Assembly: GCA_016744995.1 (NCBI GenBank) | Contig: JADGDG010000001.1 | Span: 38,011-102,010, forward strand | DNA: 64,000 bases | DNA from: Gammaproteobacteria bacterium | GTDB lineage: Bacteria > Pseudomonadota > Gammaproteobacteria > GRL18 | Direction: 5' to 3' | Part shown: positions 3,314 to 56,871 of the stretch, piece after piece | Layout: the number at the start of each line of letters is the position of its first letter | How positions within the stretch are numbered: the first letter of the stretch is position 1 | Made by a program: the position numbers and the translations under genes | Notes under the pieces: model-generated | The model's database searches: none | What the model was told of the DNA's origin: nothing | What the model saw: only the letters and a program-made list of their open reading frames with translations

Positions 3314-3486
3314 GCACGGGGTCGAGAAACATTATTGTGCCTAAATTATTCCCTCACCTCTAACTGCTTCACAACTTTTTCTATCTCTCTCTGTCCTACC
3401 TATATTTATTGTGCTTGATTGCTATAATAGTTGCTATAATCCTGAATAAATCATAAAAATAGAATAACCAACTCTGAAGGCAAACT

Positions 3487-4584
3487 ATGGATATCACCAA
3501 ATTCCTACAACTAATGGTTGATGAAGAAGCATCCGATCTTTTCTTCAGCTCACACGCTTCAGTTTCAATGAAAGTCGTGGGGAAAATTCGTCCTGTGAGT
3601 AAACAGGCACTGACTTCAACACAATTAAATTCAATATTATCAAAGCTGGTTGATGAAGAACAATTGCAGGAATTTCATAATACTATGGAGTTAAATTTTG
3701 CTATTTCAGTACAGGGTGTGGGTCGTTTTCGTGCCAATGTATTCCGCCAGCGAGGTGATATTGCTCTGGTAATTCGACATATTAAAACAGAAATTCCAGT
3801 TGTTGAGGAACTGCATCTACCATTAACTTTAAATGAGCTGGTGGCACTTAAAAATGGCCTTATCATGGTTGTGGGTGCTACGGGCTCTGGCAAATCAACC
3901 ACTTTAGCAGCAATGATTGGTCATCGTAATACCAATATTGGCGGCCATATCCTCACCATTGAAGATCCAGTGGAGTTTATTCATTCTCATAAAAAAGCCA
4001 TTGTTAATCAACGTGAAGTCGGCCTGGATACTCTGAGTTATGAAAATGCTTTGAAGAACGCCATGCGCGAAGCACCTGATGTTATTTTGATTGGTGAGGT
4101 GCGAGATTCCAATACCATGGAACACGCTATGGCTTATGCTGATACGGGCCACCTGTGTTTAACGACTCTGCATGCCAGCAATGCCATTCAGGCTCTGGAC
4201 AGGATCTTTAACTTTTTTCCTAAAAATGCTCACCGCCAGTTATCTGAAGATTTATCACGCAACTTAAGAGCCATCGTTTCTCAACGCTTAATTCCTGGGC
4301 TGGATGGCAGTTTATATCCTGCCGTTGAAATCCTCATCAATACCCCCTATGTCACAGAAATTTTACAACAGGGTAAGTTGGAAAAATTGCCTGAAGCCAT
4401 GGAGCAAGGTACCAAATATGGTATGGCAACCTTTGATGAAGTACTTTATAAAATGTATAAATCAGGCACCATTGATGTGAAAACAGCTCTGGAATATGCG
4501 GACTCCTATAATAACCTGCAGTTGAAAATCCGCATGAGTGACGGTAGTGCTGGTGATGAGGTGTTCACTGATATTGAGTTCTAA
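3487..4584 (+). CDS. Type IV pilus retraction ATPase, PilT/PilU family
   Basis: Walker A GATGSGKSTT, Asp box, His box and length (365 aa) match twitching-motility PilT/PilU ATPases. Confidence 0.75.
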   Translation: MDITKFLQLMVDEEASDLFFSSHASVSMKVVGKIRPVSKQALTSTQLNSILSKLVDEEQLQEFHNTMELNFAISVQGVGRFRANVFRQRGDIALVIRHIKTEIPVVEELHLPLTLNELVALKNGLIMVVGATGSGKSTTLAAMIGHRNTNIGGHILTIEDPVEFIHSHKKAIVNQREVGLDTLSYENALKNAMREAPDVILIGEVRDSNTMEHAMAYADTGHLCLTTLHASNAIQALDRIFNFFPKNAHRQLSEDLSRNLRAIVSQRLIPGLDGSLYPAVEILINTPYVTEILQQGKLEKLPEAMEQGTKYGMATFDEVLYKMYKSGTIDVKTALEYADSYNNLQLKIRMSDGSAGDEVFTDIEF

Positions 4585-8517: not shown

Positions 8518-10665
8518 ATGAAACGACATTCATTCTCAACTGTCAGGCAGTCAAAAGACTTTTATTCAGCAGTCGTTCGCTTTAGCCTGGGCTCAGTTAT
8601 TGCTCTGTACGTCTGGCTTGGCATGTCCAGTGGCGAGTTTGGTATTACCCGGGAACAATATAATTCATTTGCATCATTTTATTATTTCTTCACTATTATT
8701 TTTGCTATTGATATTTTTCGTCAACCCGACTGTAATCTTCGTCGCTATACTACCCTGATTTTTGATTTTACCTGTACCTCTTACGCCATTACCTTAACTG
8801 GCGGCGGCAGCAGTGAATTTCTCCTGATTTATATCTGGCTTTATATTGCCTATGGCACACGATATGGTTCCAGTTACTTGCTGGCTGGTGTCATCATTGT
8901 TATTGTTGAGTACAATTATATTCTATTTCTTGAAAACACCTGGGCAACCAATCCTCTGGGCACATCCGCACAGTTTTTTGTTCTGATCACCATGCCCCTT
9001 TATCTGCATTCAATGCTAAACAAATTACGCAAAGCAAAAAAAGCCGCAGAACAGGCAACTCGCGCTAAAAGCAGTTTTCTTGCCACCATGAGCCATGAAA
9101 TCCGCACGCCCATGAGCGGCATTATCGGTACCGCACACTTATTACAGAGGACCGAGCAAAATAAAGAACAACGTGAATACACAGGTGCTCTGCTGGATGC
9201 CTCAAAATCACTGCATGCACTGATTGATGATATTCTTGATTTTTCAAAGATTGAAGCTAATAAATTACAATTACAACGCTCAACTTTTGATTTACATCAC
9301 ACGATTAATGAAGTTATTGCCGTATTATCCCCTAATGCAGAATATCACTCTTTAGACTTTATCATCTACATTGACCCCAATTTACCCACTTATGTGATTG
9401 GTGACAGCCAGCGCATCAGACAAATTTTATTTAATTTAGTCGGCAATGCCATAAAATTTACAGAAGAAGGTGAAGTGACATTAAGAGTGACTGCAAAAAA
9501 AGAACCTTTAGCAGACAATGAGCCTTCAGCGGATATTGAGCCAAGCAAAAACACATCACTTATCCCCAGCAGCGGCAAAATCACCTTACAATTTGATATT
9601 ATTGATACTGGAATCGGCATCAATAAAGAACAACAGACAAAAATCTTTGATAGTTTCACTCAAGCTGAAAATCTTCAAACCCATCGATTTGGCGGAACCG
9701 GTCTGGGCACCACAATTTCCAAACAGCTTGTCGAGTTTATGGGTGGTGTAATTGGTGTTGACAGTGTGCTGGGTAAGGGTAGTCATTTCTGGTTTAAACT
9801 AAGCCTCCCCATAGAGAAGCGCGGTAATATTGAGCAACGTTACAAAAATATTTTTTTGGAAAAACGGGTCGCCATTGTCACCTGTAAAAGCGCGCTTTAT
9901 GATTCCCTGGAAAACTATTGTCGATATTTTGGTTTTATCGTGGATCGGTTTTATACAGAATCTGAGCTGCTTAATGGTCTGCAGCAGGCAGCTAAACACA
10001 ACAATCCCTTTGATCTGATACTTTTATCTACTAGTCGAGAGGAGACAAGCCCCCTCAGACTTGCTGATAAAATTGATGCGCTGGATTTAGGTCAGCATGC
10101 CAGACCTAAAAAGGTTTTTTTATCCTACCTGAGTAAACGTCAGGAGTTACAGCAAAATCACAATTCTCTGTTTGATGCCTATATTACTAAACCAATTAAT
10201 TTTGAGCGTCTGGGCGACGATTTATTAGAGCTGCTGAATCCTGAAAGCGCACAAATTCAAAAAACAAGTTGTTGTGAACTGGAGAACACTTCTTTAAGAA
10301 TATTGATAGCAGAAGATGAAGATATTAATGCTATGGTTCTCAGTAGTTTTCTTCAAGAGGCGGGGCATCAGACAAAACGTGTTCTCAATGGTGCTCAGGC
10401 AGTTGAAGAACTCAGACAAAACAAGTATGACATTGCTTTTATGGATATGCGAATGCCTGAAATGAATGGTCTGGAAGCCGCTATAGCCTGGCGAAAACGT
10501 GAAATCAAAGGACAGCATATACCAATTATTGCACTGACCGCTAATGCCACGACAGATGACAGAGAGGCCTGTTTAAATGCTGGGATGGATGATTTTATCA
10601 CTAAGCCAATTAGCCCGGAACAATTATCCAGTGCAATAAAAAAATTGTACTCACCCAGCACGTGA
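8518..10665 (+). CDS. Hybrid sensor histidine kinase/response regulator (membrane sensor, HisKA-HATPase, pseudo-receiver, C-terminal REC)
   Basis: Multi-TM N-terminus. H-box SHEIRTPM. N/G-box ATPase motifs. Internal receiver-like segment lacking the Asp pocket. C-terminal REC with DIAFMDMRMPEMNG and KP motif. Confidence 0.8.
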   Translation: MKRHSFSTVRQSKDFYSAVVRFSLGSVIALYVWLGMSSGEFGITREQYNSFASFYYFFTIIFAIDIFRQPDCNLRRYTTLIFDFTCTSYAITLTGGGSSEFLLIYIWLYIAYGTRYGSSYLLAGVIIVIVEYNYILFLENTWATNPLGTSAQFFVLITMPLYLHSMLNKLRKAKKAAEQATRAKSSFLATMSHEIRTPMSGIIGTAHLLQRTEQNKEQREYTGALLDASKSLHALIDDILDFSKIEANKLQLQRSTFDLHHTINEVIAVLSPNAEYHSLDFIIYIDPNLPTYVIGDSQRIRQILFNLVGNAIKFTEEGEVTLRVTAKKEPLADNEPSADIEPSKNTSLIPSSGKITLQFDIIDTGIGINKEQQTKIFDSFTQAENLQTHRFGGTGLGTTISKQLVEFMGGVIGVDSVLGKGSHFWFKLSLPIEKRGNIEQRYKNIFLEKRVAIVTCKSALYDSLENYCRYFGFIVDRFYTESELLNGLQQAAKHNNPFDLILLSTSREETSPLRLADKIDALDLGQHARPKKVFLSYLSKRQELQQNHNSLFDAYITKPINFERLGDDLLELLNPESAQIQKTSCCELENTSLRILIAEDEDINAMVLSSFLQEAGHQTKRVLNGAQAVEELRQNKYDIAFMDMRMPEMNGLEAAIAWRKREIKGQHIPIIALTANATTDDREACLNAGMDDFITKPISPEQLSSAIKKLYSPST

Positions 10666-17451: not shown

Positions 17452-17781
17452 GTGTCAAACGACATCCTGGAACAGCTCGCACAAACTCTGGAAGCGCGCA
17501 AACATGCAGATCCCAAGACTTCTTATGTTGCTAAACTGCACCACAAAGGTCTGGATACCATCCTGAAAAAAATAGGTGAAGAAGCCACAGAAACGGTTAT
17601 CGCCTCAAAAGGTGGAAAAAAAGACGAAATCATTTACGAAACAGCTGATTTATGGTTTCATAGCATGGTTATGTTGTCTCATCATGGCTTAGGACCTGAA
17701 GATGTACTTAAGGAACTTTCTCGCCGCTTTGATTTATCAGGCATTGAAGAAAAAGCAAATCGGAAACCTAAATCTAATTGA
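17452..17781 (+). CDS. hisE: Phosphoribosyl-ATP pyrophosphatase
   Basis: MazG-like HisE helices (EEATE...E..D). Completes the his operon. Confidence 0.85.
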
Positions 17782-17866
17782 CAGCCCTGAGCTAATTGAT
17801 AGCCCTGAGCTAGTTGACAGCCCTGAGCTAAATACAGCCCTGGGCTAATTAACAGCCCTGAGCCTA
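17777..17866. repeat. Tandem array, 5 x ~18 bp (TTGACAGCCCTGAGCTAA)
   Basis: Five head-to-tail near-identical units between hisE and hinT. 12/18 identity to the coding repeat unit in tatB/tatC. Confidence 0.8.
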
Positions 17867-17891
17867 ATTTCAAGAGAAACGAGTAAGCAAT

Positions 17892-18268: not shown

Positions 18269-18514
18269 ATGGGATTTGGCCCTTTAGAATTATTTATTAT
18301 CCTGGCAATTGTACTGGTTTTGTTTGGCGCAAAAAAATTACGTAATATCGGTGGAGATCTGGGTGGCGCAATTAAAAACTTCAAGAGTGCAATGAACGAA
18401 GAAGAAAAAGCCGCTGAAGACAAATCAACGACTGAAAGTCAGGTTCAGCTTGATAAAGATGGCGGTACAACAATCGAAGGTAAGGTTGAAAACAAAACAA
18501 ACGAAAAGGTTTAA
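18269..18514 (+). CDS. tatA: Sec-independent translocase TatA
   Basis: [26 protein letters not shown] helix plus amphipathic helix. The ORF track begins 27 nt earlier, but the MGF start fits TatA. Confidence 0.8.
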
Positions 18515-18582
18515 TGCTTTTTATCCGTTTTAATAGACTGTTCTTATATTTGTTAATCTAAACAAGGTTGCTTTAGTAGGTT

Positions 18583-19074
18583 ATGTTTGATATAGGTTTT
18601 TGGGAACTCTCCCTGATTGGAATTGTTGCGTTATTGGTCATCGGCCCCGAACGTTTGCCCGCAGTTGCAAGAACTGTCGGTAAATATTTTGGCCGTGCCA
18701 ATCGTTTTATCACTAATGTAAAAAATGACATCAGCAAAGAGCTTAAAGATGAAGATCTGAAACAAATTCTCTTAGACCAACAAAAACTGGCTGATGATTT
18801 TAAAAACGCTGCCAGTTCAATGAATTCCGCCATCAGCTCTGAAACCGAATCACTCCGAGGCAGTGTCAGCATGGATGATATTCTGGAGATTGAGGAGTCT
18901 TCAACTAGTAAGGAGTCTTTAACGGGTAATGAGTCTTCAACTGGTAAAGAGCCTTCAGCTAATAAAGAGCCTTCAACTAGTAAGGAGCCCTCAGCTAGTA
19001 AAGAGCCTTCAGCTAACAAAGACAAAACTGAATCCACCTCATCTGAATCACAGAGCAGTACAGAAAAATCATGA
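18583..19074 (+). CDS. tatB: Sec-independent translocase TatB with repeat-derived C-terminal tail
   Basis: MFDIGFWELSLIGIVALLVIGPERLP TatB N-terminus. The C-terminal 45 aa are encoded by 7 x 18-bp repeats. Confidence 0.8.
   Translation: MFDIGFWELSLIGIVALLVIGPERLPAVARTVGKYFGRANRFITNVKNDISKELKDEDLKQILLDQQKLADDFKNAASSMNSAISSETESLRGSVSMDDILEIEESSTSKESLTGNESSTGKEPSANKEPSTSKEPSASKEPSANKDKTESTSSESQSSTEKS
18893..19018. repeat. In-frame 18-bp tandem repeat array (7 units, GAGCCTTCAGCTAGTAAA) inside the tatB 3' end
   Basis: Seven consecutive 18-mers encoding (E/K)(S/P)S(T/A)(S/G/N)K hexapeptides. Confidence 0.85.
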
Positions 19075-20021
19075 GTGAAAACCACCAGAATGCTGAGCCT
19101 CAAATGGAAAATGAACAGCCGTTCATGGCCCATTTGATTGAACTTCGCGATCGCATCTTACGCATTGTCATTGTCGTAACCGCCTTTTTTATGGTGCTGT
19201 TCTTTTTTGCTAACGATCTCTATCACTTAGTCTCTGCTCCCCTACTGGAACAATTGCCTGAAGAAAGCACAATGATTGCCACAGGCGTAGCAGCCCCTTT
19301 TTTAACTCCCTTTAAACTCAGCCTGGTTGCTTCAATCTTTCTTGCTGTCCCCTATATTTTTTATCAATTCTGGTCCTTTGTTGCCCCAGGTTTATACCAG
19401 CATGAAAAGCGTCTGGCGCTTCCTTTAGTAGCCTCAAGCGTTATCCTGTTTTACGGCGGTATAGTCTTCTCATTTTATATTGTTTTTCCATTAATGTTTG
19501 CTTTTTTTACCGCCACAACACCTGAAGGTGTTGCCATGATGACTGATATCAGCCAATATCTTGATTTTATTCTGAAGATGTTTTTTGCTTTTGGTATTGC
19601 CTTTGAAGTCCCGATTGTCACAATTGTTTTGACCATAACCGGCGTTACTAACGCCGATAAACTTGCAGAAAAACGCGCCTATGTCATTGTTGGCTCATTT
19701 GTTCTTGGCATGCTGCTGACACCACCTGATATCATTTCACAAACGCTACTGGCAATCCCCATCTGGCTCCTTTACGAGCTAGGTATCATCTTCTCACGCA
19801 TCATTGGCAACAGAAAAGCTAGAGAGGCTGAAAAAGCTAGTAAGGAGCAGGAGCCTTCAGCGAGTAAGGAGCCTTCAGCAAGTGAGGAATCTTCAGCAAG
19901 TGAAGAGCCTTCAACTTCAGAGGGTAAGAATAACGGTTCAGAAGAGCCTCGTTATAAGCCTATGACCGATGAAGAAATGGAAGCAGAACTGGATGCAATA
20001 GAACGAGAGGAAAAGCCATAA
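19071..20021 (+). CDS. tatC: Sec-independent translocase TatC with repeat-derived C-terminal extension
   Basis: Six-TM TatC core (start overlaps the tatB stop). The C-terminal tail contains 4 x 18-bp repeat units. Confidence 0.85.
   Translation: MSENHQNAEPQMENEQPFMAHLIELRDRILRIVIVVTAFFMVLFFFANDLYHLVSAPLLEQLPEESTMIATGVAAPFLTPFKLSLVASIFLAVPYIFYQFWSFVAPGLYQHEKRLALPLVASSVILFYGGIVFSFYIVFPLMFAFFTATTPEGVAMMTDISQYLDFILKMFFAFGIAFEVPIVTIVLTITGVTNADKLAEKRAYVIVGSFVLGMLLTPPDIISQTLLAIPIWLLYELGIIFSRIIGNRKAREAEKASKEQEPSASKEPSASEESSASEEPSTSEGKNNGSEEPRYKPMTDEEMEAELDAIEREEKP
19851..19922. repeat. In-frame 18-bp tandem repeat array (4 units) inside the tatC 3' end
   Basis: GAGCCTTCAGCGAGTAAG-type units encoding EPSASK/EPSASE. 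Confidence 0.8.
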
Positions 20022-20094: not shown

Positions 20095-21876
20095 TTATTT
20101 TGACTTAGTATCAACTTTAAACGAAACCCGCTCAAATGAGTCCGTCGCCATCAACACATTTGTTAAAGTAACAGAGTTCAATTTTTCATTGTGCCAGACT
20201 TTAAGAACACTCCCGCGATCATAAACACCTGATGGCACAATCAAGTGAAGCTTCCCACCTTTGCCCTTAGTATCATTTTCTGAAATTAAAAATGCTCTTT
20301 GATATTGTCCACCTGCACCAGCACCTTTAATCCCTTTGACTGCAATTGCTCTTGATTGTACCGCAAGCAGCTGTAGACCGATGGCCACTCCCTTATGAGG
20401 ATTGACTCGTAACCACTTAACCGTTGCAAGACAGTAAGCTTTTTCAACATTCAGTCGATAAGCCACCAGCATTCCAACGCCTATAGGCACATCAATGTCA
20501 TTTTTACTGACTAATAACATCCCATGAATACTTTCATTTTTCTGCTTCCAGTTTTCTTCTTTTAAGTGCTGATTTATTATCTCCTGCGATGCATTCATAT
20601 TGGCATTAACAATAGAGCTGGCATAAATGTGCTCCCATTCATCACCGATTACACTTGCTCCAGCAGAAAAGGGATTAAGACTCTGTAGTTCACCCATTGG
20701 ATTTTTTTTATCCAATAATTTAGCCTCTTCCAGTAAACCGACTAAATTAATATCCGAATCATCTTTTAATTGATTCTGTTCCAGTCTTTGCTCCAATTGT
20801 GCATCAATTTCAGCCTGAGGATTAAATGGCTTTCTATGGTCAATAAAATGATGACAGGCCCTAAGACCTGAAACTAATTTAATCTCATGCCCCACCAACG
20901 AACGTTCTTCTGAACGCTCTTCATGCACACTGATTTCATTCTCAATACGCTGCAGCATTTCATTATAGATCCGCGCCTGATACGAAAGTACGAGATGATT
21001 TTTTTCTTCATTCACCGTTTCCAAATGAGCATCTAAATAAATTTGCAATCGGTCAGTTGTCACTACACGCCCTTCAAATTTTTCTACATTCGATTTTTTA
21101 GTATCGGTTTTCTTATTATAATAATGAGGTGAGTGATCAGATAATAATTCAACCACAAAATTGCCTTCAGGAGCATGTTGCAAATAGTTTTCAATATCGC
21201 AGTGCTCAACCCAATCGGCCATCAGGTGATAAATTTTACGCGCCTCAAGACGCATAAATCGATAGGGGTTCATTATTTTCAAAATTGCAATTTGCAAATA
21301 ACAGCTTTTTATCGATGTGTGTTTTCTGATCACATCACCCTGAGCACCTATTCGTTCAGCTAACAAATAGAGCTGATTCAATTCCTGCCAGATAAAGGCT
21401 GGTTCTGATAAATAAAACTGAAAGCGCTCAACCAACAGCCTCGACAGGTAGAATAATGCCATAAATAATGACTCTGGCACCAAACTACCAAGGTATTGAT
21501 CGATCAAATCAGTATTCTGGGCAATATCATGAACAACAATTTGATAGGCTATTGAGCTTTCCAACAATAATTGCTGTAATTGATTAATAATTGAGTGGAA
21601 TTCTTCACTTATTGGGAAGGCTATTGAGTTGGTTTGCTTTACCAATAACTCCAGCTCTTTTTGAATTTCAGCATCCATGATTGCCATTATTGACATTCTG
21701 ACACCAGGAGGGCATTGAATTCGATTCAGTTTGGCCAGCGTATTTAAAAACTCCTGGTGATCCAGATGATCCCGCTTATTCAGCCAATTTTGCACAGATA
21801 TTTCATCAGGCCTGATCCCCTGATAATCACCAGAAACAACTTCCTGTCGTGGAATACGCAAAGTCGGAGTAAACAT
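20095..21876 (-). CDS. Large hypothetical protein (593 aa), possible C-terminal beta-rich PilZ-like domain
   Basis: Long uninterrupted ORF convergent with tatC. No confident motif. The C-terminal segment is Gly/Lys-rich and beta-strand-like. Confidence 0.4.
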   Translation of the reverse strand: MFTPTLRIPRQEVVSGDYQGIRPDEISVQNWLNKRDHLDHQEFLNTLAKLNRIQCPPGVRMSIMAIMDAEIQKELELLVKQTNSIAFPISEEFHSIINQLQQLLLESSIAYQIVVHDIAQNTDLIDQYLGSLVPESLFMALFYLSRLLVERFQFYLSEPAFIWQELNQLYLLAERIGAQGDVIRKHTSIKSCYLQIAILKIMNPYRFMRLEARKIYHLMADWVEHCDIENYLQHAPEGNFVVELLSDHSPHYYNKKTDTKKSNVEKFEGRVVTTDRLQIYLDAHLETVNEEKNHLVLSYQARIYNEMLQRIENEISVHEERSEERSLVGHEIKLVSGLRACHHFIDHRKPFNPQAEIDAQLEQRLEQNQLKDDSDINLVGLLEEAKLLDKKNPMGELQSLNPFSAGASVIGDEWEHIYASSIVNANMNASQEIINQHLKEENWKQKNESIHGMLLVSKNDIDVPIGVGMLVAYRLNVEKAYCLATVKWLRVNPHKGVAIGLQLLAVQSRAIAVKGIKGAGAGGQYQRAFLISENDTKGKGGKLHLIVPSGVYDRGSVLKVWHNEKLNSVTLTNVLMATDSFERVSFKVDTKSK

Positions 21877-22196: not shown

Positions 22197-23177
22197 ATGA
22201 AGCATCCATTTACAAAATTTTTTCTACAGTTTTTCCTTTTCTTTTTCTCATCCATACTGATTGCAAATGATAAACCAGCCGGTAAAGTTAAAAACACTGA
22301 AGATATTCAGGTAAAAAAAATTATCTGGACAGGTTGCGGCATTACCAAAAAAGCATTTATGGCTGAAATTGCATCTGCCTATGAAAAAAAATATGGGGTG
22401 GTTATAGACTTAAAAGGTGGTGGTGCAACCCGGGGAATTCGTGATACAAAATCAGGTGTATCACATATCGGCGGCACCTGTAGAATTCCTTTACACAATC
22501 CTGAAGAGCAAAGCATGTTATTAAAATTAATTTTAGTTGCATGGGATGCTTTAGTAGTGATTGTTCATAAAGATACACCGATCAATGATATAAAAAAACA
22601 GGAACTTATTGATATTTTGAATGGAAAAATTATTTACTGGAATGAATTATCAGGCTGGCAGGGAAAAGCTGATAGTCAGCAGGAAATTGATATTTTCACC
22701 CGGACTTCAAAAATTTCCGGAGTAGGTTACACACTCCGAAAGATTTTATTTAATGATACAGAAATAGAATTTAGCTCAACAAAATCATTCCCATCTTCCG
22801 GGCCACTGGAAAAAGGCATCGAAAAAGAAAAATATTCCCTGGCAATCACTGGTATTTCCAGCGCAAGAAAAAGAAATGTTAAAATTCTTAACCTGAATGG
22901 GATCACCCCTGATTATGAAACCATTAAATCAGGTAATTATTTTATGTATCGCCCCTTGTACCTGACTTATACTTCACTTTACAAGTTACCTAAAAATGAA
23001 AAAAAAGAGGTCAAGCGTTTTCTAAAATTTATTAAAAGTGAAAAAAAAGAGGTCAAGCGTTTTCTAAAATTTATTAAAAGTGAAGAAGCAGCAAAAATTA
23101 TCAAGGCCAATGGCGTCGTACCATTCAAAGAAGGCTTTCACCTTATCAAACAACGAAAAGATATTTTTGGTAGTTAA
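22197..23177 (+). CDS. PstS-family phosphate-binding protein-like periplasmic substrate-binding protein (orphan)
   Basis: Signal peptide. GGGATRGIRD..SGVSHIGGTCR and downstream PBP-fold motifs resemble PstS. No pstCAB genes adjacent. Confidence 0.55.
   Translation: MKHPFTKFFLQFFLFFFSSILIANDKPAGKVKNTEDIQVKKIIWTGCGITKKAFMAEIASAYEKKYGVVIDLKGGGATRGIRDTKSGVSHIGGTCRIPLHNPEEQSMLLKLILVAWDALVVIVHKDTPINDIKKQELIDILNGKIIYWNELSGWQGKADSQQEIDIFTRTSKISGVGYTLRKILFNDTEIEFSSTKSFPSSGPLEKGIEKEKYSLAITGISSARKRNVKILNLNGITPDYETIKSGNYFMYRPLYLTYTSLYKLPKNEKKEVKRFLKFIKSEKKEVKRFLKFIKSEEAAKIIKANGVVPFKEGFHLIKQRKDIFGS
23001..23084. repeat. Perfect 42-bp tandem duplication (2 copies) inside the PstS-like gene
   Basis: AAAAAAGAGGTCAAGCGTTTTCTAAAATTTATTAAAAGTGAA occurs twice back-to-back in frame (KKEVKRFLKFIKSE x2). 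Confidence 0.9.
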
Positions 23178-26180: not shown

Positions 26181-26266
26181 TGGTAGGCAAGGTCAGATTC
26201 GAACTGACAAACCCTTTCGGGAAAATGGTTCTAAGCCATTCGCGTTTTCCATTTCGCCACTTGCCC
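26181..26266 (-). tRNA. tRNA-Leu (anticodon TAG), class II
   Basis: Manual fold gives a 7-bp acceptor, 3-bp D-stem, anticodon loop CTTAGAA, long variable arm, T-loop TTCGAAT and encoded CCA. Confidence 0.8.
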
Positions 26267-26273
26267 TTGAGTA

Positions 26274-26348
26274 TGGCTGCCGTGCCTGGGTACGATCCAG
26301 GAATAATGGAGTCAAAGTCCATTGTGCTGCCAATTACACCACACGGCA
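26274..26348 (-). tRNA. tRNA-Gln (anticodon TTG)
   Basis: Manual fold gives acceptor TGCCGTG/CACGGCA, anticodon loop CTTTGAC and CCA. The T-loop reads ATCGTAC (A54/T58 swap). Confidence 0.7.
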
Positions 26349-26389
26349 ATTGTTTGGTGTACATTAACGTTCTTTTTATTAGTTAATCT

Positions 26390-26465
26390 TGGGGTGAGTA
26401 ATCGGGTTCGAACCGATATCATCTGGATTCACAGTCCAGAGCTTTACCATTAAGCTATACTCACC
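26390..26465 (-). tRNA. tRNA-His (anticodon GTG) with G-1
   Basis: Extra 5' G pairing with C73. Anticodon loop CTGTGAA. T-loop TTCGAAC. CCA encoded. Confidence 0.85.
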
Positions 26466-26473
26466 ATAATTCT

Positions 26474-26641
26474 TTATATGCGTTGTGCATGAAATATGGC
26501 TGTCAAAATTTGTGGGTGATCACGATTGGGTGCCACGCCTTGACGTAAAAACCAGAGTGCATTCGGCTGACTTGCTGTTTTCCGGTTTTCAGGTATTTTC
26601 ATATCTTTGACTACTTTTTCAAATTTTTCATAGTGATTCAT
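26474..26641 (-). CDS. Hypothetical 55-aa protein nested between tRNA-His and tRNA-Lys
   Basis: ATG preceded by GGAGGT RBS at optimal spacing. Not in the supplied ORF track (<60 aa). No homology recognised. Confidence 0.3.
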   Translation of the reverse strand: MNHYEKFEKVVKDMKIPENRKTASQPNALWFLRQGVAPNRDHPQILTAIFHAQRI

Positions 26642-26662
26642 AATTAATACCTCCTTTTTAAT

Positions 26663-26738
26663 TGGTGCGTCGCCCCGGCTACGATCCGGGAACTTACTGG
26701 TTAAAAGCCAGTTACTCTGCCAGTTGAGTTAGCGACAC
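26663..26738 (-). tRNA. tRNA-Lys (anticodon TTT)
   Basis: Clean cloverleaf with anticodon loop CTTTTAA and CCA. The T-loop reads ATCGTAG (A54/T58 swap, as in tRNA-Gln). Confidence 0.7.
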
Positions 26739-26739
26739 A

Positions 26740-26825
26740 TGGCTCCAGGACTCAGATTCGAACTGAGATAGGGAATTGCTCCCTCCGGTTAACAGCCGGG
26801 TGCCTTGCCAATCGGCCATCCTGGA
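26740..26825 (-). tRNA. Atypical class-II (long variable arm) tRNA with Asn anticodon GTT
   Basis: 86 nt. U1-A72 and G73 as in tRNA-Asn. Anticodon loop CTGTTAA is identical to E. coli tRNA-Asn. It has a 3-bp D-stem and a 13-nt variable stem-loop typical of Ser/Leu/Tyr-class tRNAs. T-loop TTCGAAT. CCA encoded. Confidence 0.55.
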
Positions 26826-27299
26826 ATTTTTTTAAGCTTTTTGTGGTACTTGCAAAGTTGATATTTGCTTGTTAAGCCTCAATGCTTTAAAAGCAAGGAA
26901 ACAACCCCCTCAGTCCCCCTTCTAAAGAAGGGGGAAGCTAAGAGCAATTTTTCAAGTGCCTCTTTTAATTTAAATAAGACCTGAGATTATAGTCTTAAGC
27001 GAAAATTCTTTAGCCAGATTATGAACAGGTTCCACCCTATTGCTTCCCAACGTATCCACTGATACCCACAAATGGCTTATCAGTTAATTTTCATGACCGC
27101 CTTTTTAAGCTGGTGGCAATCCCAGCATACATAACAATACTCAGCACTTCGTTTTACCGTCTGAGCCGATCAAAGCTCATCTGTGTAACTTAGTACCAGA
27201 AACATCAGCTTGGGGCTTCTGTTTCACCTAAGTTCAGAGAACTGCTCAGGTTTAGGTCATTTTCTTGTTACGCTGAAGTACGTCTTTCCTTTTATTAAG

Positions 27300-27374
27300 T
27301 GGTTTTGTAAGGATGACTCGAACATCCAACCGATTGATTATAAATCAACTGCTCTACCATTGAGCTATTACAAC
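27300..27374 (-). tRNA. tRNA-like gene, anticodon TAT, G1xA72 mismatch (possible tRNA-Ile(UAU) or decayed CAT-family tRNA)
   Basis: Full 75-nt cloverleaf with encoded ACCA. D-arm and anticodon loop resemble the CAT-anticodon tRNA-like gene at 32982-33054 except for C34>T. Confidence 0.4.
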
Positions 27375-27890
27375 AATCTGCCAAGACGTGCGTACTTCGG
27401 TTGTTTTGAAACCTTTTGAGTCACAAAATGCAACACGCCTTATACCTTTCACATTCCTGCTACTAAGTGGCTTTTCAGGATGCCGGTTTTTATCCTTTAC
27501 CCTTCAAACTTCATTAGCGCCCTTGTCTGACGTCTCGGACTGACTAATGTACCCTTCATTCTTCATAGTGCAGTCAGTTGGCTCATGGCGATCACTGCCA
27601 GATGATCCTTCGGTGGTACTGTTTGCAGCCCCTCACCTTATAAACCATGCCGACCTTTTCTATTATCTCCAGGAGACCTGAAGACAAAGAGAACTGGGCT
27701 TGCGTAAACCGACCAGAGCAATATCACTAACCACTCTGGTGAGGGCATGCAGACATTCCCTCTTTTTTACTGTCACCAGTAATTATCGTTACCGATCTCA
27801 CGCAACCGGCTACTTTCCTGCAAGCAGGAAATTGTAAATAAGTTCTAAATTATTAAAGAGCCTGGGCATAACCTTGAGACACTTTTTTCA

Positions 27891-50154: not shown

Positions 50155-50296
50155 GGTTACATGAGAAGCCTTTAGCAATTACATGAAAAGCCTTTAGTGA
50201 TTACATGGAGCCTTCAGCGGTTATATTAAGAAGCCTTTAGCAGTTACATATGAAGCCTTCAGCGATTTCTTAAAAAGATTACATAAACAGCCCTCG
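50155..50296. repeat. Tandem array, ~5 x 22 bp (TTACATGARAAGCCTTTAGCRA)
   Basis: Member of the AGCCYTNAGC repeat family. Intergenic, upstream of folB. Confidence 0.8.
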
Positions 50297-53562: not shown

Positions 53563-53612
53563 GAGCCTTCAGCTTATCTTGTAAAAACAGCCTTCAGCCA
53601 GATAAAAAATTA
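53563..53612. repeat. Two copies of the AGAGCCTTCAGC repeat unit
   Basis: aaAGAGCCTTCAGCttatcttgtaaaaACAGCCTTCAGCcag between the MEMO and AMMECR1 genes. Confidence 0.7.
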
Positions 53613-56746: not shown

Positions 56747-56784
56747 ATGGACACCTCTTATCTGACAGCAACACGGCTATTTTA

Positions 56785-56871
56785 GCTGAAGGCTCTTTTC
56801 TTGCTGAAAGCTCTTTTTTAGCTAATAGCTCTTTTAGCTAAAGGCTCTTTTTTGCTAATGGCTCTTATAGG
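56785..56871. repeat. Tandem array, 5 x ~18 bp (GCTGAAGGCTCTTTT), reverse orientation of the family unit
   Basis: Reverse complement of AAAAGAGCCTTCAGC. Immediately upstream of uppP. Confidence 0.8.

Follow-up and report, generated by a model that had tools for sequence, protein, structure and literature searches.

An 18-bp minisatellite read in frame in the cytoplasmic tails of TatB and TatC, with a DNA core shared by arrays elsewhere in a gammaproteobacterial genome segment

The tatABC cluster of a gammaproteobacterium (GenBank assembly GCA_016744995.1, contig JADGDG010000001.1) lies within a 64,000-nucleotide stretch of DNA, referred to here as the window, and two of its genes, tatB and tatC, contain arrays of the same 18-bp repeat that are translated as part of the proteins. 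The arrays are a real and mostly ordinary in-frame minisatellite, located in dispensable tails, but with a conserved DNA core that is unexplained. Feature coordinates are listed in Table 1.

Read in codon register, the seven tatB units encode ESSTSK, ESLTGN, ESSTGK, EPSANK, EPSTSK, EPSASK and EPSANK (general type E[SP]S[TA]xK), and the four tatC units encode EPSASK, EPSASE, ESSASE and EPSTSE, both arrays being in frame 0. A preliminary description of this DNA had reported the same repeat in frame in both genes, with seven units in tatB and four in tatC, and the codon register confirms this; the interval that it gave for the tatB array (18893–19018) covers the same 126 bp but is displaced by 2 nt from the codon register. 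Tandem Repeats Finder places the tatB array at 18895–19015 (period 18, 6.7 copies, 82% matches, score 137) and the tatC array at 19849–19913 (period 18, 3.6 copies, 85% matches, score 95), and the individual units differ among themselves by 1–5 nt. Searching the window with the 18-mer consensus and allowing up to three mismatches returns 10 matches where 0.04 are expected. The arrays are thus of the minisatellite, or variable number tandem repeat (VNTR), type, with head-to-tail units in the range of about 10–100 bp that are alike well above chance.

The Tat cores are intact, with both genes scoring above their curated cut-offs and retaining the invariant columns. TatB is identified by a profile match over its N-terminal transmembrane helix and amphipathic helix, with tatC adjoining in the tatABC cluster, and TatC by a score above the curated cut-off across its polytopic core; PF00902 is also on record for P0001, a protein identical to the window TatC. 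The tatB stop and tatC start codons overlap as ATGA. Both components had been called essential in the preliminary description; in Escherichia coli the tat genes are not essential under standard conditions.

The arrays occupy parts of the two proteins that vary in length throughout their relatives. The TatC comparison set consists of the best 120 relatives (56–86% identical to the window TatC), which derive from uncultured marine Gammaproteobacteria, including metagenome-assembled genomes labelled as lucinid clam symbionts, and both tail ends could be anchored in 100. All 100 have a common C-terminal plan, in which the conserved core ends at the juxtamembrane sequence IFSRIIGNRKARE and is followed by a low-complexity linker of 24–78 aa (median 52) and then a near-invariant acidic motif, PRYKPMTDEEMEAELDAIE in the window, with the consensus (E)PRYxPMTDEEMEAELDAIE, that is still recognisable in relatives at about 57% identity. 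The TatC array is therefore not a terminal appendage but an internal linker between the sixth transmembrane helix and a conserved acidic C-terminal helix. A variant of the motif, DDPDLAEQITDEEMERELD, is found in another subgroup, and the motif is not known from E. coli TatC. In the TatB set of 112 relatives, the motif MDDILEIEES precedes a variable Ser/Thr/Asn/Glu/Lys-rich tail of 15–89 aa that usually ends in ...TEKS, where tatB overlaps tatC; the window array sits between MDDILEIEES and the semi-conserved C-terminal ...STEKS. The TatB tails of other lineages hold different simple repeats, Lys runs and NS runs of variable length, which suggests that the tail may be a general hotspot for low-complexity expansion. 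The fillers seen in P0173/P0176/P0184/P0185 and P0230–P0239 are NS runs of 3–5 copies and Lys runs of 9–11 residues. The repeats had been described as appended to otherwise canonical proteins, but relatives already have tails and linkers of these lengths, and the TatC array is internal.

Predicted structures place both arrays in disordered segments. AlphaFold models the membrane cores poorly (mean predicted local distance difference test scores, pLDDT, of 59 and 64), and its models are used solely for the contrast between tail and helix: TatB has helices at residues 6–20, 22–94 and 97–103 followed by coil at 105–163 (pLDDT 38–49), and in TatC residues 260–292 are coil (pLDDT <50), whereas residues 300–314 form a helix with the highest pLDDT of the model. 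The disorder prediction that the preliminary description had proposed as a check puts both arrays in coil at pLDDT below 50. Consistent with this, the arrays comprise 81–96% disorder-promoting and 0–2% hydrophobic residues. The C-terminal domain of TatB has been described as non-conserved, hydrophilic and dispensable (PMC13186574), and only residues 1–63 of TatB and, in TatC, 6–236 are resolved by cryo-electron microscopy (PMC13323110); the TatB array accordingly lies in a region that is both regarded as dispensable and structurally not resolved, in keeping with the C-terminal variability of TatA and TatB. It differs from E. coli-type Tat tails in that those are without tandem DNA repeats, and a long TatC linker that ends in a conserved helix does not feature in what is described for E. 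coli.

The repeat type is not confined to this genome. In L003, the nearest genome that was found, TatC is 85% identical overall; the tatB array there consists of five 21-bp units (ESSTSNK) and the tatC array of six units of 18 bp. L209/L210 also carry arrays in both genes, so that the window, L003 and L209 make up three lineages with tatB and tatC jointly occupied. Arrays are present in the tatC genes of L006, L009, L024, L206/L207 and L208, and at the protein level at least three motif copies are found in 17 of the 100 TatC relatives and four of the 112 TatB relatives. Lineages at 77–86% TatC identity to the window share the repeat type, and the alignment with orthologs, proposed as a check that the tails are lineage-specific, shows that they are not specific to this genome. 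Such tails are unusual among Tat proteins generally, as had been noted, but not within this clade.

Copy number varies between close relatives. L206 and L207, which come from two sequencing runs, are 99.3–99.8% identical over 2.9 kb but have four and seven units, respectively, in their tatC arrays, the 63-bp indel corresponding to exactly three 21-bp units. Differences of whole units are also seen between proteins P0002 and P0008, and among P0010, P0021 and P0040. The preliminary description had asked for copy-number variation among strains and had offered a tolerated slippage hotspot as one of its two interpretations; the variation is seen in these relatives, and the L206/L207 indel fits a hotspot of this kind. 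Judged from these comparisons, the Tat tail segments are copy-number hotspots and the repeat type is a property of the clade and not of a strain.

The same unit, 18 bp with the core GAGYCTTCARC, is dispersed elsewhere in the window. The 11-mer GAGCCTTCAGC is present without mismatch at six loci (tatB, tatC, a histidine kinase gene and three intergenic spacers), and with one mismatch allowed the core is matched 16 times in the window against 0.78 expected. A family profile built solely from the tatB and tatC units recovers the other four loci. In the hybrid histidine kinase the units fall within a loop of the HATPase_c domain, which has 137 aa against 110 profile positions, and they are read in the same unit frame as those of tatB and tatC; all three coding arrays of the window use this single stop-free frame. 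The periods are 18 or 21 bp in coding arrays and 16–25 bp in the intergenic arrays of the window. A further array in the hisE–hinT spacer is composed of a diverged variant that the tatB/tatC-only profile does not detect but that matches the family unit at 13 of 18 positions in register by a manual position-by-position count. At this site L003 has one copy and L006 has 2–3 degenerate copies, with none in the other relatives; given the single copy in L003 against 5.3 in the window, the array has grown in place. Its unit contains TTGACA, but by inspection there is no −10-like hexamer at the right spacing, and a promoter-like role was rejected. No significant secondary structure was found in six arrays (folding z −1.0 to +1.8) and an Rfam search at the arrays gave no family match, which rules out a hairpin, a repetitive extragenic palindromic (REP) or terminator-like element, and a known RNA family.

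Taken together, these observations are best accounted for, and probably explained, by a dispersed minisatellite that was expanded by slippage within pre-existing disordered cytoplasmic segments of TatB and TatC, with selection acting only on frame and on the general character of the peptide. Long, variable and disordered cytoplasmic segments, namely the part of TatB that follows the amphipathic helix and the linker of TatC, would have been encoded before the repeats arrived, because all 100 TatC relatives share the linker plan and the 112 TatB relatives have variable tails. Copy number would then shift by replication slippage or unequal exchange, and selection would purge only those variants that break the frame, introduce a stop or yield an unsuitable peptide. 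The survivors would be units of 18 or 21 bp in the frame giving the hydrophilic peptide E-P/S-S-A/T-x-K, since the other variants are removed. The array itself would be a neutral or near-neutral flexible spacer, which in TatC tethers the conserved helix at a free length. Slippage is the likely mechanism, and the arrays are presumably close to neutral for Tat function; the Tat-tail repeats look tolerated rather than needed. The preliminary description was thus correct in what it observed, and its interpretation is partly supported.

Several observations weigh against slippage and near-neutrality as a complete account. For the window's own species only identical copies are available, and no copy-number variant was found. 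The co-occurrence of arrays in tatB and tatC in three lineages could reflect exchange or a shared benefit. Further discrepancies come from a codon census of 49 peptide-defined units (E[PS]S[AT]) in tatB and tatC, taken from the window and eight related loci, nine lineages in all. The unit Glu is encoded by GAG in 48 of 49 cases, where GAG makes up 27% of Glu codons in the genome; TCA encodes the third-position Ser in 45 of 49, and CCT encodes Pro in 28 of 32. The wobble position of the fourth codon is free (GCG 13, GCT 10, GCA 6 and GCC 1; ACT 8, ACC 7, ACG 3 and ACA 1), such that conservation across lineages extends to unit positions 3, 6 and 9 but not to position 12. Single-copy controls at the same loci vary, with TatB EES and TatC EPRY EP using GAA/GAG, TCT/TCC/TCA and CCT/CCG/CCC, and codon identity at conserved TatC-core residues is just 0.41–0.64. 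Residues 5 and 6 of the unit peptide are variable, and the conservation sits at synonymous sites. DNA-level constraint therefore applies to the first 11 nt of the unit. Slippage makes the units of a single array alike but does not account for a consensus fixed across lineages, and, with neutrality added, the conservation of the core between lineages still goes unaccounted for. Concerted evolution across loci offers no easy answer, because arrays with different spacers have only 11–13 bp in common, which is too short for ordinary RecA-mediated gene conversion.

These same data are what recommends a different reading, which partly overlaps slippage in disordered tails and which we regard as possible though doubtful: that the core, (R)GAGCCTTCAGC (11–12 nt), is itself propagated or selected independently of frame and orientation, either as a double-stranded DNA motif that binds a protein or signals recombination or replication, or as a selfish repeat. 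The core would then seed arrays in spacers and in disordered segments, including those of TatB, TatC, RNase E, CheA and histidine kinases; arrays in genes would last only if their peptide does no harm, and the Tat tails would be bystanders. Apart from the conserved wobble positions, it is favoured by the presence of the exact 11-mer in both coding and intergenic arrays of the window and in both orientations.

A single metagenome scan of 241 million records bears on the same question. It looked for three consecutive GAGYCYTCARC cores with spacers of 7–10 nt, allowing eight core variants, and matched at least 120 contigs with GC contents of 0.28–0.75; 110 arrays were analysed among the matches listed. 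The core is GAGCCTTCAGC in 82 of these, GAGTCTTCAAC in 14 and a mixed form in four. A purine directly precedes the core on its 5′ side in 105 of the 110; among these are 39 of 39 arrays outside coding sequence or in other frames, as well as arrays read antisense, where this base is a Ser wobble position. Among listed contigs with a GC content of at least 0.6, CCT and not CCC is used in 29 of 36. The listed arrays have periods of 18 (71 arrays), 21 (23), 19 (13) and 20 bp (3), and those of 19 and 20 bp, periods found among the non-coding arrays, are ruled out as simple coding repeats. Within long open reading frames (ORFs), the sense reading EPSAxx (41 listed arrays) and the antisense reading xxAEGS (38) are about evenly represented. 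Core positions 4 and 10 covary, GAGCCTTCAGC alternating with GAGTCTTCAAC and four of the 110 listed arrays being mixed (L083–L202); the GAGCCTTCAGC and GAGTCTTCAAC forms coexist inside single arrays in the window tatB, L003 and L207. A base-pairing explanation for the coupled change from C4/G10 to T4/A10 was not adopted, as the stem would be only 2–3 bp and the flanking position is not conserved.

Host proteins among the matches listed include RNase E, CheA, histidine kinases, an S41 peptidase, YhdP, AcrB and a DNA polymerase III subunit. Nine RNase E ORFs cluster among these; eight of them, with the array in their C-terminal regions, have catalytic domains that are 64–77% mutually identical and on this basis are taken to be gammaproteobacterial, and one of the eight has the array in antisense. 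In L124 (GC 0.54), the TatC N-terminus includes five EPSAGK units (GAGCCTTCAGCGGGCAAA), encoded at positions 3454–3545 right after the tatB stop codon; this TatC is 46% identical to that of the window, and its N-terminus is another cytoplasmic tail. The eight RNase E contigs and L124 would represent independent colonisations. The preliminary description had proposed orthologs from unrelated lineages with the same tail as a possible refutation, and the L124 TatC does carry the repeat type, but at the N-terminus instead.

Other considerations count against a propagated core. By a rough estimate, tens of chance arrays of any given 11-mer are plausible in 241 million records, and the scan pattern preselects these codons, which limits what it says on codon bias outside the clade of the window; the skew to one of eight variants and the conserved flanking purine nonetheless argue against pure chance. 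The arrays have no hairpin and belong to no Rfam family, and the core lacks a mechanism, with no associated transposase or binding protein identified. Relatives have no intergenic arrays within 9–17 kb around tatC, and a scan of viral contigs for core arrays gave only three matches. Separately from these points, a blastn search of plasmids with a synthetic array gave no match, possibly through low-complexity masking, and searching proteins with a synthetic EPSAxK repeat yielded five weak, uninformative matches. The breadth of the family outside the clade, as read from these sequence searches, is provisional.

It is unlikely that the repeat tails are adaptive for Tat, with the peptide itself selected either as a tuned entropic spacer that positions the TatC helix or for a part in regulation or interactions played by its Ser/Thr-rich sequence. 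The retention of linker and conserved helix in every relative, the joint presence of tatB and tatC arrays in three lineages, and the use of just one stop-free frame in the three coding arrays of the window would all fit such a role, but the linker varies more than threefold in length with no conservation of its sequence, few relatives have as many as three motif copies, and near-identical strains are three units apart. Moreover, the same DNA unit is found in intergenic DNA and in unrelated proteins, and what is conserved lies at synonymous sites and not at the variable residues five and six.

That the copy numbers were inflated or collapsed during assembly, or that the antisense ORF over tatB is the true gene, is very improbable: tandem repeats can be mis-sized by short-read assemblers and the ORF is long (186 aa), but tatB and tatC have the same sequence, base for base, in an ENA assembly (L001) and in a Logan assembly of SRR11072026 (L002) as in the window (although all three may share the same source reads), the array architecture recurs in independent genomes, and the family matches are to the sense strand. 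Collapse or inflation is unlikely because the units differ from one another and the tatC array, at 72 bp, is below typical short-read length, the longer tatB array having 126 bp. The assembly artefact that had been named as a ground for refutation is accordingly not borne out. The antisense ORF (containing ...LLAEGSLLAEGS...) was rightly set aside in the preliminary description as a spurious by-product: the unit has no stop codon in that frame, in relatives the antisense strand of tatB is free of stops for anything between 67 and 186 aa, and a real antisense gene is ruled out by the family match on the sense strand of tatB and the lack of conservation of the ORF. The core also resembles part of an old Illumina paired-end adapter, but an adapter origin is rejected because the arrays keep the reading frame of genes that are conserved, their spacers are variable and copy numbers differ between strains.

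The arrays have features in common with several known repeat systems but correspond fully to none of these. In-frame VNTRs likewise consist of head-to-tail units in multiples of three, differ in copy number between near-identical strains and encode low-complexity disordered peptide. The bacterial examples are best known in surface and secreted proteins under diversifying selection, whereas the Tat arrays are in the cytoplasmic tails of housekeeping membrane proteins and their unit recurs elsewhere, including in intergenic DNA. They are not phase-variable contingency loci; units of 18 or 21 bp, as multiples of three, keep the frame at any copy number, and phase variation is ruled out. Mycobacterial interspersed repetitive units (MIRUs) resemble the family in being tandem units dispersed in short spacers of co-directional genes and in varying in copy number between strains; MIRU units are 40–100 bp, and we know of none reported inside housekeeping coding sequences in the manner of the Tat arrays.

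Comparable in distribution are the Rickettsia palindromic elements (RPEs), which are similarly dispersed between genes and in frame in unrelated housekeeping genes at tolerated positions, and which Ogata et al. in 2000 reportedly described as selfish repeats inserted in frame in protein-coding genes. RPEs are single palindromic copies of about 100–150 bp, however, and the present units are 18–21 bp, tandem and without a hairpin, with no mobility mechanism evident. Of the features expected of REPs or bacterial interspersed mosaic elements, miniature inverted-repeat transposable elements or RPE-type elements, the many dispersed and in-frame copies are present, but a palindrome, hairpin or terminal inverted repeats are not. 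RPEs are mentioned in two papers (PMC1779305, PMC10969869).

A further likeness is to vertebrate hypervariable minisatellites, which are said to have been described by Jeffreys et al. in 1985 as having a common short core. Here too there are many loci with a common core of about 11–13 nt and a differing unit remainder and period; the window periods span 16–25 bp with the same core, and in the metagenome, with periods of 18–21 bp, 82 of the 110 arrays analysed among the matches listed have the identical core. The family of the window differs in being bacterial, with much shorter and partly coding arrays. If the core is indeed the propagated entity, then a bacterial counterpart of the vertebrate core-sharing minisatellites, or of in-frame selfish elements, is a tentative analogy, and a role for the core in recombination would be pure conjecture. 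We found no account in the literature of tandem-repeat Tat tails or of a bacterial core-sharing family, which is weak evidence as coverage was incomplete, and a literature search by sequence string returned primers only.

The genes hisE, hinT, tatA, tatB and tatC are all transcribed from the forward strand of the window. Downstream of tatC is a leftwards-transcribed gene (20095–21876) coding for a 593-aa protein with precomputed Pfam matches to FimW_N and FimW_C, although our own Pfam and NCBIfam scans gave no match; this gene also adjoins tatC in L206 and L207. A 42-bp tandem repeat (TAAAAGTGAAAAAAAAGAGGTCAAGCGTTTTCTAAAATTTAT; 22991–23084, 2.2 copies, 98% identical) is unrelated to the 18-bp family. 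Further to the right, a GOLLD RNA (RF02032; 154 bits against a gathering score of 150) is located on the reverse strand at 26978–27441; it has a tRNA embedded in it (27303–27374) and is adjoined by a cluster of five further tRNAs (26184–26825). The combination of a GOLLD RNA and tRNAs usually denotes phage or prophage DNA.

Table 1. Repeat arrays, tat genes and associated features, with coordinates in the window.
Feature	Coordinates	Strand	Description
Kinase units	9502–9556	+	KEPLAD NEPSAD IEPSKN; HATPase_c loop of hybrid histidine kinase (8518–10665); profile E = 6e-6
hisE–hinT spacer array	17774–17869	+	CAGCCCTGAGCTAATTGA; 5.3 copies, 18 bp, diverged unit variant
tatA	18269–18514	+	First gene of tatABC cluster; TIGR01411, 71.8 bits
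Antisense ORF	18573–19133	−	186 aa; by-product of stop-free antisense frame of unit
tatB	18583–19074	+	163 aa; TIGR01410, 74 bits (cut-off 56.5), residues 2–70
tatB array	18895–19020	+	Seven in-frame 18-bp units; TatB aa 105–146
tatC	19071–20021	+	316 aa; TIGR00945, 237 bits (cut-off 132.7), residues 19–235
tatC array	19851–19922	+	Four in-frame 18-bp units; TatC aa 261–284, part of variable linker
TatC C-terminal motif	19947–20003	+	PRYKPMTDEEMEAELDAIE; TatC aa 293–311, 3′ of array; near-invariant in about 100 relatives
Intergenic array	50157–50267	+	5 copies, period 22, core RAGCCTTYAGC; profile E = 3.6e-3
Intergenic pair	53563–53604	+	Two copies, period about 25, 2 nt past stop codon of upstream gene; profile E = 2.9e-3
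Intergenic array	56778–56870	−	AAGAGCCTTYAGCTAAAA; about 5 copies, period 16–18, opposite orientation; profile E = 3.9e-7

For the biology of Tat the arrays are mainly reassuring, in that the translocase tolerates almost anything at these positions; the repeats mark the boundaries of the functional core and expose a conserved TatC helix held on a linker of free length. More broadly, one short DNA core recurs in arrays between genes and in the disordered parts of several housekeeping proteins, and it keeps its synonymous positions across lineages in which other silent sites are close to randomised. If its conservation reflects a sequence-specific process, repeat DNA would have an undescribed means of creating and resizing disordered segments of bacterial proteins, which would also be a warning not to take such tails for adaptations of the proteins that host them.

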